NCBI RefSeq assembly: GCF_003790525.1
Contig: NZ_CP033635.1
DNA: 64,000 nt
Strand: one strand, 5' to 3'
Origin: Escherichia coli
GTDB taxonomy: Bacteria > Pseudomonadota > Gammaproteobacteria > Enterobacterales > Enterobacteriaceae
Part shown: one piece after another, positions 47,856-50,908 of the stretch
Layout: the number at the start of each line of letters is the position of its first letter
Numbering within the stretch: position 1 is the first letter of the stretch
Notes under the pieces: model-generated
The model's input: only the letters and a program-made list of their open reading frames with translations
What the model was told of the DNA's origin: nothing
The model's database searches: none
Position numbers and translations under genes: made by a program

Positions 47856-48032
47856 TAGAGTAAGTAACTGGTTAATTTACATTCTGGTCGCGTGCGCAAA
47901 TACGCTTTTCCTCACACAGTTGTCAAGTGTTACGTTTAGATAATTGCTATCCGGAAAAGCATCTGCTATTTATAGCGGCCTCATTTTTCCCCCGAACATG
48001 GGGATCGATAGTGCGTGTTAAGGAGAAGCAAC

Positions 48033-48488
48033 ATGCAAGAAGGGCAAAACCGTAAAACATCGTCCCTGAGTATTCTCGCCATCGCTGGGGTGGAGCCATA
48101 TCAGGAGAAGCCGGGCGAAGAGTATATGAATGAAGCCCAGCTGGCGCACTTCCGTCGTATTCTGGAAGCATGGCGTAATCAACTCAGGGATGAAGTCGAT
48201 CGCACCGTTACACATATGCAGGATGAAGCAGCCAACTTCCCGGACCCGGTAGACCGTGCAGCCCAGGAAGAAGAGTTCAGCCTCGAACTGCGTAACCGCG
48301 ATCGCGAGCGTAAGCTGATCAAAAAGATCGAGAAGACGCTGAAAAAAGTGGAAGACGAAGATTTCGGCTACTGCGAATCCTGCGGTGTTGAAATTGGTAT
48401 TCGCCGTCTGGAAGCGCGCCCGACAGCCGATCTGTGCATCGACTGCAAAACGCTGGCTGAAATTCGCGAAAAACAGATGGCTGGCTAA
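48033..48488 (+). CDS. dksA: RNA polymerase-binding transcription factor DksA
   Basis: Known 151-aa DksA begins [20 protein letters not shown] at ATG 48033 with AGGAG Shine-Dalgarno at 48021..48025; C4 zinc finger ([25 protein letters not shown]). Confidence 0.95.
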
Positions 48489-48516
48489 TTACAGCCGTTC
48501 CATCACGTTTACCACA

Positions 48517-48545
48517 GGCGGGAAATGCTCCCGCCTTATTTTTTG
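48517..48545 (+). terminator. Intrinsic terminator downstream of dksA, immediately upstream of gluQ
   Basis: GGCGGGA-AATGC-TCCCGCC followed by TTATTTTTTG, 29 nt after the dksA stop and 10 nt before the gluQ ATG. Confidence 0.65.
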
Positions 48546-48554
48546 TTCAAAGAG

Positions 48555-49451
48555 ATGACAGACACACACTATATTGGCCGCTTCGCCCCCTCTCCTTCCG
48601 GCGAGCTTCATTTTGGTTCTCTGATTGCCGCGCTTGGCAGCTATTTGCAGGCTCGCGCCCGGCAAGGTCGCTGGCTGGTACGCATAGAAGATATCGACCC
48701 GCCTCGTGAAGTTCCCGGTGCCGCAGAGACTATCCTGCGCCAGCTGGAACATTACGGCCTGCACTGGGACGGCGACGTTCTCTGGCAATCGCAACGTCAC
48801 CACGCCTATCGCGAAGCACTCGCCTGGTTATATGAGCAAGGACTAAGTTATTACTGCACCTGCACGCGTGCGCGTATTCAAAGCATTGGCGGTATTTACG
48901 ACGGTCATTGCCGGGATTTGCATCATGGACCAGACAACGCGGCTGTGCGAATTCGGCAGTTGCATCCGGTCACGCAGTTTACTGATCAACTACGCGGAAT
49001 TATTCACGCCGACGAAAAACTGGCGCAAGAAGATTTTATTATTCATCGTCGTGATGGTTTGTTTGCCTATAACCTGGCGGTGGTGGTCGATGATCACTTC
49101 CAGGGCGTCACAGAAATTGTTCGTGGGGCAGATTTGATTGAACCGACAGTGCGACAAATCTCGCTGTACCAGCTTTTTGGCTGGAAAGTGCCAGATTACA
49201 TTCATTTACCGCTGGCGCTTAACACACAAGGCGCTAAACTTTCCAAGCAGAATCATGCGCCTGCGTTGCCGAAAGGCGATCCGCGCCCGGTGTTAATCGC
49301 GGCACTTCATTTTCTGGGTCAGCAGGTAGAAACACACTGGCAGGATTTCAGCGTCGAGCAAATCCTTCAGTCAGCCGTCAAAAACTGGACGCTGACTGCC
49401 GTGCCTGAGTCGGCAATTGTAAATTCAACATTCTCAAATGCGTCATGCTGA
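48555..49451 (+). CDS. gluQ: Glutamyl-Q tRNA(Asp) synthetase (GluRS paralog YadB)
   Basis: ORF track starts at 48525, but that ATG lies in the loop of the dksA terminator hairpin; the recalled 298-aa GluQ-RS begins [30 protein letters not shown] at 48555. Confidence 0.85.
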
Positions 49452-49510
49452 GCTATGATTAGCCGCTATTTTTTTGTCCTGAATGATGTTTGACACTACC
49501 GAGGTGTACT

Positions 49511-50908
49511 ATTTTTACCCGAGTCGCTAATTTTTGCCGCAAGGTGCTAAGCCGCGAGGAAAGCGAGGCTGAACAGGCAGTCGCCCGTCCACAGGTGACG
49601 GTGATCCCGCGTGAGCAGCATGCTATTTCCCGCAAAGATATCAGTGAAAATGCCCTGAAGGTAATGTACAGGCTCAATAAAGCGGGATACGAAGCCTGGC
49701 TGGTTGGCGGCGGCGTGCGCGACCTGTTACTTGGCAAAAAGCCGAAAGATTTTGACGTGACCACCAACGCCACGCCAGAGCAGGTGCGCAAACTGTTCCG
49801 TAACTGCCGCCTGGTGGGTCGCCGTTTCCGTCTGGCTCATGTGATGTTTGGCCCGGAGATTATCGAAGTTGCGACCTTCCGTGGACATCACGAAGGTAAC
49901 GTCAGCGATCGCACGACCTCCCAACGCGGGCAAAACGGTATGTTGCTGCGCGACAACATTTTCGGCTCCATCGAAGAAGACGCCCAGCGCCGCGATTTCA
50001 CTATCAACAGCCTGTATTACAGCGTGGCAGATTTTACCGTCCGTGATTACGTTGGCGGCATGAAGGATCTGAAAGACGGCGTTATCCGTCTGATTGGTAA
50101 CCCGGAAACGCGCTACCGTGAAGATCCGGTACGGATGCTTCGCGCGGTTCGTTTTGCCGCCAAATTGGGCATGCGCATCAGCCCGGAAACTGCCGAGCCG
50201 ATCCCACGCCTGGCAACCTTACTGAACGATATCCCACCGGCACGTCTGTTTGAAGAATCGCTGAAACTGTTGCAAGCGGGCTACGGTTACGAAACTTATA
50301 AGCTGCTGTGTGAATATCATCTGTTCCAGCCGCTGTTTCCGACCATTACCCGCTACTTCACGGAAAATGGCGACAGCCCGATGGAGCGGATCATTGAACA
50401 GGTGCTGAAGAATACCGATACGCGTATCCATAACGATATGCGCGTGAACCCGGCGTTCCTGTTTGCCGCCATGTTCTGGTACCCATTGCTGGAGACGGCA
50501 CAGAAGATCGCCCAGGAAAGCGGCCTGACCTATCACGACGCTTTCGCACTGGCGATGAACGACGTGCTGGACGAAGCCTGCCGTTCACTGGCGATCCCGA
50601 AACGTCTGACTACGCTAACTCGCGATATCTGGCAGTTGCAGTTGCGTATGTCCCGTCGTCAGGGAAAACGCGCATGGAAACTGCTGGAGCATCCTAAGTT
50701 CCGTGCGGCATACGACCTGTTGGCCTTACGAGCCGAAGTTGAGCGTAACGCTGAACTGCAACGTCTGGTGAAATGGTGGGGTGAGTTCCAGGTTTCCGCG
50801 CCGCCAGACCAAAAAGGGATGCTTAACGAACTGGATGAAGAACCGTCACCGCGTCGTCGTACTCGTCGTCCACGCAAACGCGCACCGCGTCGTGAGGGTA
50901 CCGCATGA
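49511..50908 (+). CDS. pcnB: Poly(A) polymerase I
   Basis: ORF track begins at TTG 49490; the established PcnB N-terminus ([19 protein letters not shown]...) starts at an AUU codon, here ATT at 49511, giving 465 aa. Start assignment rests on published knowledge, not sequence alone. Confidence 0.85.

Follow-up and report, generated by a model that had tools for sequence, protein, structure and literature searches.

The spacer between dksA and gluQ-rs, the element considered here, was investigated in Shigella flexneri by Caballero et al. (2012, BMC Microbiol 12:226, PMC3542578). In S. flexneri, RT-PCR detected a single transcript extending across dksA and gluQ-rs. A lacZ fusion (pVCDT) that runs from dksA +58 to the gluQ-rs start and lacks the dksA promoters showed baseline activity, also under altered pH and with added glutamate. 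A fusion stopping at the dksA stop codon was ∼10-fold more active than one with the intergenic region, and point mutations that disrupt the stem (pVCPDTMut) increased downstream lacZ expression more than 2-fold. The hairpin was drawn in that study with a free energy of -14.7 kcal/mol; its loop carries the first AUG, and the second one follows 27 nt downstream. Edman sequencing of C-terminally tagged GluQ-RS, performed on the main band after T7-driven overexpression in BL21(DE3), gave TDTQYIGRFAP, which corresponds to initiation at the second AUG and a protein of 298 aa; the authors pointed out that this true start has no obvious Shine-Dalgarno sequence. They further reported that the hairpin is present in E. 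fergusonii with no methionine codon in it, that Pseudomonas also has a terminator in the dksA-gluQ spacer, and that in stationary phase the intergenic amplicon increased 20-fold while the dksA and gluQ amplicons changed 1.3-fold (PMC3542578).

We analyzed the corresponding region of Escherichia coli in a stretch of 64 kb (64,000 nt, hereafter the window). The dksA-gluQ terminator and the over-extended gluQ start are already known, having been published in 2012, and are corroborated by Term-seq data from 2021 (Adams et al. 2021, eLife 10:e62438, PMC7815308). In the literature after 2012 on gluQ starts or readthrough we found nothing beyond PMC3542578. The reporter assays and the RT-PCR were carried out in Shigella; among E. 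coli genomes, 4456 of 5424 are identical to the window over positions 48503-48557. We are highly confident that the intrinsic terminator at this locus is the one already known between the two cistrons of the dksA-gluQ operon and that gluQ is expressed via readthrough, with translation starting at position 48555.

Layout of the locus

Positions 48000-49500 of the window match E. coli SMS-3-5 (NC_010498.1) with 100% identity, and 5424 of 5426 complete E. coli genomes contain this region. The gene order in the RefSeq annotation of SMS-3-5 is thpR, sfsA, dksA, gluQRS, pcnB, folK. The coordinates of the features at the locus are collected in Table 1.

Table 1. Features of the dksA-gluQ region (window coordinates)
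Feature	Position	Strand	Evidence
dksA CDS, 151 aa + stop	48033..48488	+	RefSeq annotation of the identical SMS-3-5 sequence
Small hairpin GAUGGCUG / GCUAAUUA / CAGCCGUU, dksA stop in loop (tentative)	48476..48499	+	Fold energy
Terminator stem-loop	48516..48536	+	Fold of -15.1 kcal/mol; core in 77/79 species; published stem mutations
Spurious 10-codon N-terminal extension of gluQ	48525..48554	+	NC_000913.3 b0144; Edman data; conservation; Term-seq 3' end
Terminator T tract TATTTTTTGTT	48537..48547	+	Sequence; mapped RNA 3' end at 48540
gluQ (gluQRS/yadB) CDS, 298 aa + stop	48555..49451	+	PGAP; PDB 1NZJ; published N-terminus; NCBIfam GluQRS equivalogs

The dksA product matches the NCBIfam DksA model NF008045 over residues 1-151 (E = 1.7e-104). 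Its gene is preceded by a strong Shine-Dalgarno sequence, AAGGAG, with a duplex energy of -9.2 kcal/mol in 77/77 species, and ends with a TAA codon at 48486-48488. The gluQ product is ∼96% identical to PDB 1NZJ by mismatches counted in the alignment. It scores above the cut-off of the GluQRS equivalog model NF004312 (622 bits, cut-off 453) and of two other equivalog models, NF004314 (403, cut-off 256) and TIGR03838 (379, cut-off 277).

Just 3' of gluQ, the annotated start of pcnB is an ATT codon (49511-49513, plus strand), in agreement with the non-canonical AUU initiation codon described for poly(A) polymerase I. The neighbors gluQ, which lies behind a terminator and has no Shine-Dalgarno sequence, and pcnB, with its AUU start, thus both carry expression-limiting start signals. 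A sigma-70-like site, TTCTCA-17-TATGAT (9/12 matches; 49431-49459, plus strand), overlaps the end of gluQ upstream of pcnB and may be a candidate pcnB promoter. Elsewhere in the window, two Rfam matches above the gathering score were found, the t44 sRNA (83.5 bits, 19749-19835, minus strand) and the HtrA 5' UTR thermometer (77 bits, 27958-28003, minus strand); both are ordinary E. coli features with no relation to the dksA-gluQ terminator.

An intrinsic terminator between dksA and gluQ

The stem-loop begins 27 nt past the dksA stop codon. It consists of a 5' arm AGGCGGGA (48516-48523), a 5-nt loop AATGC (AAUGC in RNA; 48524-48528) and a 3' arm TCCCGCCT (UCCCGCCU in RNA; 48529-48536), which form eight pairs, six of them G-C. 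This G+C-rich structure is directly followed by the U tract UAUUUUUUGUU. Each element of the canonical terminator proposed after dksA in the original prediction was found in its place. The folding energy is -15.1 kcal/mol (z = -4.3 against dinucleotide shuffles), and none of 200 shuffles was as stable. A scan of the 64 kb window for GGCGGGA-N3-7-TCCCGCC gave one match versus 0.00 expected from 100 shuffles, and this single match, together with the fold z-score, indicates that the hairpin is non-random. A loose scan for terminators returned 4 sites in 3 kb versus 3.9 expected, which is chance level. Since such a scan provides no evidence by itself, the case for the terminator rests on the strength of the hairpin, its conservation and the published mapping of RNA 3' ends.

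In the Term-seq tables for E. coli MG1655 (PMC7815308), a dominant 3' end is listed at 160097 on the minus strand, flanked by the dksA-gluQ hairpin. MG1655 position 160112, the loop ATG in K-12, corresponds to window position 48525, and 160097 therefore corresponds to 48540, which is inside the U tract, 4 nt past the stem and 15 nt past the loop ATG. The listed reads at this end are 3,097,035 in LB at OD 0.4, the highest value among the table rows examined, and 254,767 in LB at OD 2.0; with a further listing in M63, the end appears in all three growth conditions of the tables. It is given an intrinsic-terminator score of 7.47, where scores of at least 3 are taken as intrinsic, as well as a Rho score of 1.16 and the entry 'No' for a significant Rho region. 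The DirectRNA-seq coverage, tabulated for 800-nt windows, falls from 250 upstream of the end to 62 downstream in the absence of bicyclomycin and is unchanged in its presence (250 and 72; PMC7815308). According to these published tables, transcripts end in vivo within the U tract and do so independently of Rho. In S. flexneri, disruption of the stem raises downstream expression, as described above, and the terminator is functional.

We compared the locus across Enterobacteriaceae using one genome per GTDB species, which gave 80 loci from Escherichia, Citrobacter, Salmonella, Enterobacter, Klebsiella, Kluyvera, Kosakonia, Cedecea, Buttiauxella and other genera; dksA precedes gluQ in 79 of them. 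Of these 79 species, 77 have the GGCGGG/CCCGCC stem, and in these 77 the gluQ ATG follows 12-29 nt after the stem (median 22). In the 12 nt before the stem, the consensus base is shared by 0.35-0.69 of the species; at the 4-fold degenerate sites in dksA and gluQ, this fraction is 0.56-0.70. An invariant core between diverging flanks and synonymous sites suggests that the stem is under strong purifying selection. The six core pairs are invariant, and compensatory changes are seen at the apical and basal pairs only (apical A-U to G-C in four species; basal A-U to U-A or C-G), while the sequence of the loop varies freely. Paired positions make up 85% of cells, versus 48-62% with the partner slid. 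The structure is thus conserved with compensatory changes, with support coming mostly from conservation, and the comparison adds modestly to the case for strong selection on the terminator. The U tract is good in Escherichia (8 T in the first 10 nt after the stem) and poorer in the Enterobacter loci (3-5 of 10).

The spacer between the dksA stop and the stem has a minimum of 16 nt (median 27); it tolerates lengths of 16-107 nt as well as insertions. In three Citrobacter loci (L012, L017, L020) it is enlarged by REP-like palindromic insertions, and in Kosakonia and relatives (L036, L041, L045, L071) by an extra G+C-rich hairpin; these enlarged spacers reach 86-151 nt, with the terminator and its distance to gluQ unchanged. 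In Phytobacter and a related MAG (L025, L053), a weaker and different hairpin, CGGGGA-AAAT-TTCCCG, replaces the GGCGGG stem, and the Phytobacter spacer is 125 nt. In Buttiauxella sp. A111 (L081), no GGCGGG hairpin is found in the 110 nt upstream of gluQ, which look unrelated to the usual type of spacer; a dksA-type C-terminus was assigned by script 199 nt upstream, and the locus was left out of the counts.

The same stem could be read as a regulated attenuator, on which a protein, a small RNA or a growth-phase signal would adjust readthrough and thereby the level of GluQ-RS. The 12 core stem nucleotides are identical in 77 of 79 species, which is more constraint than pairing alone demands; this invariance can also be explained by the fact that every single-step change of a G-C pair weakens a selected terminator. 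The 20-fold stationary-phase rise of the intergenic RT-PCR product would fit such an attenuator, and the authors raised protein binding or a riboswitch-like circuit as possibilities; their own riboswitch search was negative (PMC3542578). The Term-seq reads at the 3' end are 12-fold lower at OD 2.0 than at OD 0.4, in counts that are not normalized to dksA, but the tables list the end in each of their conditions. Rfam searches of the locus were negative, both with gathering thresholds and with E <= 5. Upstream of the hairpin, the sequence is unconserved and accommodates insertions, with no conserved antiterminator partner evident; neither a conserved alternative structure nor a ligand-binding domain was found upstream by Rfam, in the 12-nt upstream consensus or in the spacer. 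We therefore consider a regulated attenuator unlikely and favor a passively leaky intrinsic terminator.

A smaller, putative hairpin was found at the dksA stop codon, formed by the final codons of dksA (AUG GCN GGY) and the nucleotides right after the stop, with UAA in the loop. In E. coli its folding energy is -11.6 kcal/mol (z = -4.05). At the same position in loci L002-L080, 70 distinct species sequences have a mean energy of -7.02, versus -4.83 +/- 0.27 when the 3' parts are shuffled. All four Watson-Crick pair types are seen at the Ala wobble base. The covariation observed at this base (37) is close to the value obtained when 3' segments are permuted between species (34.8 +/- 3.7), with 66 of 200 permutations at or above the observed count; thus we claim no covariation, and only the excess of energy over shuffles stands.

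An antiterminator around the stop codon was considered and rejected. The terminal GGCNGG codons of dksA and the C-rich stretch behind the stop are similar to the arms of the terminator and could have competed with them, but in E. coli they pair poorly, with a mismatch in CAGCC/GGCGG. In addition, a ribosome at the stop codon would be expected to cover both arms of the small hairpin and to leave the terminator, at least 16 nt downstream (median 27), untouched.

It can be speculated that the invariant stem, the stop-codon hairpin and the gluQ start without a Shine-Dalgarno sequence, three features taken as conserved in at least 77 Enterobacteriaceae species, form a control module in which a factor reads the stem and adjusts readthrough in response to growth phase or osmotic stress. 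Such a module would link the stringent-response factor DksA to the glutamyl-queuosine modification of tRNA-Asp. We regard it as quite doubtful, and retain the simple terminator as the preferred reading.

The gluQ start codon

The mechanically called gluQ ORF encodes 308 aa. As stated in the original prediction, its first ATG is in the hairpin loop: the codon occupies 48525-48527 and lies wholly inside the five loop nucleotides (48524-48528). The next in-frame ATG (48555-48557) is found 30 nt on, 10 nt past the last T of a T6 run (48544), and opens the sequence MTDTH. Public annotations are divided between the two codons. The K-12 reference NC_000913.3 (b0144; 927 nt, 308 aa) starts at the loop ATG, and large E. 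coli protein clusters from a metagenome and genome collection have 308-aa representatives. PGAP assigns gluQRS 298 aa from the second ATG, both in the identical SMS-3-5 and in the other E. coli genomes examined.

The structures of YadB/GluQ-RS (PDB 1NZJ and 4A91) are of a 298-aa protein that begins with MTDTQYIG and whose alignment with the long ORF covers residues 11-308. The MTDT N-terminus placed at 48555 in the original prediction is correct; these structures, the published Edman sequence TDTQYIGRFAP and the 298-aa PGAP model all agree with it. On the 308-aa form, the match to NF004314 starts at residue 11 and that to TIGR03838 at residue 16. For the 306-position NF004312 profile, the alignment begins at residue 5 of the 308-aa form (48525-49448), and this profile is the only one that reaches into the extension; presumably the untranslated extension was built into this profile via its seed sequences.

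Among the 80 species loci, those of E. coli and E. albertii are the only ones with an in-frame ATG in the loop, and no such ATG was found in the genera other than Escherichia that were compared. In E. whittamii the loop is AATAC and thus contains no ATG. In Escherichia sp. MOD1-EC7003 the T tract is 1 nt shorter and the loop ATG is out of frame. The blood isolate E. coli AF16 has the loop AATTAC and is the sole carrier of exactly that stretch in 5426 genomes. The in-frame conservation among relatives that a genuine N-terminal extension would display is therefore not observed. The loop ATG arose by accident in the loop sequence and is specific to Escherichia, and the 308-aa gene model is an artefact that annotation produced by taking the first ATG of the longest ORF.

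The ATG at 48555 has no usable Shine-Dalgarno sequence; an AAGAG stretch adjoins this ATG. Across 77 species, the energy of the anti-Shine-Dalgarno duplex at gluQ is +1.0 kcal/mol on average (range -3.4 to +3.0), versus -9.2 at dksA. Since no species has a Shine-Dalgarno sequence at gluQ, its absence is a conserved property of this gene.

Occasional use of the loop AUG in Escherichia, giving a 308-aa isoform as in the K-12 annotation, has been largely refuted and appears most improbable. From 48525 onward the reading frame is open, and within E. coli the loop ATG is close to fixation (4456/5424 genomes identical over the interval given above; one AF16-type loop). The 2012 authors noted a possible Shine-Dalgarno sequence upstream of the loop AUG (PMC3542578), and the extension is carried by NC_000913.3, many gene callers and NF004312. 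Edman sequencing yielded only the short form (PMC3542578), although, as it covered the main band of an overexpressed protein, a minor chromosomal 308-aa species is conceivable. Against the isoform, both the AUG and its Shine-Dalgarno-like purines are locked in a hairpin of -15 kcal/mol, and in the Term-seq tables most transcripts stop 15 nt past the loop AUG. The extension is absent or out of frame in E. whittamii, MOD1-EC7003, AF16 and the other genera, as well as in E. fergusonii according to PMC3542578, and the family-wide HMMs start at residue 11 or later. The fold of -15.1 kcal/mol, the Edman short form and the poor conservation likewise bear out the original prediction that the upstream ATG is sequestered in the stem-loop and is not the start. 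Initiation at 48555 remains the preferred reading.

The Term-seq tables label the 160097 end as 'internal' to gluQ, 15 nt from the start codon (PMC7815308). This label results only from the use of the loop ATG in the K-12 annotation, and the 3' end of the dksA terminator is a false case of intragenic, premature termination. Correction of the start would remove this case from the genome-wide Term-seq list. The remaining use of the present analysis is in curation: a 10-residue extension that is not made persists in NC_000913.3 (b0144), in many automated gene calls and in one of the NCBIfam models.

Expression of gluQ by readthrough and related operons

In the mechanism that best explains these data, transcripts begin at the dksA promoters, and most of them end in the U tract just past the hairpin, with the 3' end at 48540. 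A minority, roughly 10-25%, read through and provide the sole mRNAs carrying gluQ; this range is a rough one from the 10-fold reporter ratio and the coverage, both of which mix in RNA stability. On the readthrough mRNAs, translation from the AUG at 48555 without a Shine-Dalgarno sequence keeps GluQ-RS low relative to DksA. The AUG at 48525 is held in the loop of the hairpin, the 5' arm of which (AGGCGGGA) contains its only Shine-Dalgarno-like purines. Initiation there would mostly yield stop-less messages, because most transcripts end 15 nt after that ATG.

The original prediction left two routes to gluQ, readthrough from dksA or a promoter overlapping the terminator. The reporter fusions and Term-seq data support the first of them, whereas the silent promoterless fusion and our promoter scans speak against the second. 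Under laboratory conditions gluQ has no separate promoter. A condition-specific promoter of its own, either overlapping the terminator or within dksA, such as a sigma-24 site, could be considered, given that RegulonDB predicts a sigma-24 site for E. coli gluQ-rs and that the 2012 authors left condition-specific promoters possible (PMC3542578). The fusion from dksA +58 without the dksA promoter stayed at baseline (PMC3542578), and our scan of 47990-48600 with the sigma-E pattern GGAACTT-N15-17-TCNAA found no match. A sigma-70-like match (9/12) is present at 48546-48575, but two such matches were found versus 2.3 expected, and this one would start transcription downstream of the gluQ ATG. A dedicated gluQ promoter is thus very unlikely, and readthrough stands as the route to gluQ.

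As established in 2012, the synthesis of GluQ-RS is tied to dksA transcription, and a leaky terminator together with a start codon that lacks a Shine-Dalgarno sequence keeps it low. We infer that the purpose of this arrangement is a fixed low ratio of GluQ-RS to DksA, and that the readthrough is probably passive rather than regulated. The 20-fold stationary-phase rise of the intergenic amplicon (PMC3542578) argues against a purely passive terminator, which leaves it unexplained.

The locus agrees with the S. flexneri dksA-gluQ-rs operon in co-transcription, the absence of a separate promoter, a working terminator and the use of the second AUG, which has no obvious Shine-Dalgarno sequence. It differs in that the organism is E. 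coli and that residue 5 of the mature protein is H and not Q, with no difference in mechanism. The gluQ gene model follows the usual course of longest-ORF, over-extended annotations, in which an older annotation took an upstream in-frame ATG, conservation and N-terminal data favor the downstream ATG, and PGAP has already made the correction; it differs from them in that an RNA structure encloses the false start and an RNA 3' end has been mapped 15 nt past it. The rpsU-dnaG-rpoD operon, whose T1 terminator upstream of dnaG was named as an analogue by the 2012 authors (PMC3542578), similarly has an operon-internal intrinsic terminator before a gene with a poor ribosome-binding site and a scarce product; the genes are different, and the likeness, drawn from the literature, is one of principle only. 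Finally, E. coli recX, although at an unrelated locus, is likewise a downstream gene that is expressed only via ∼10% readthrough of the terminator of the upstream gene, recA (cited in PMC3542578).
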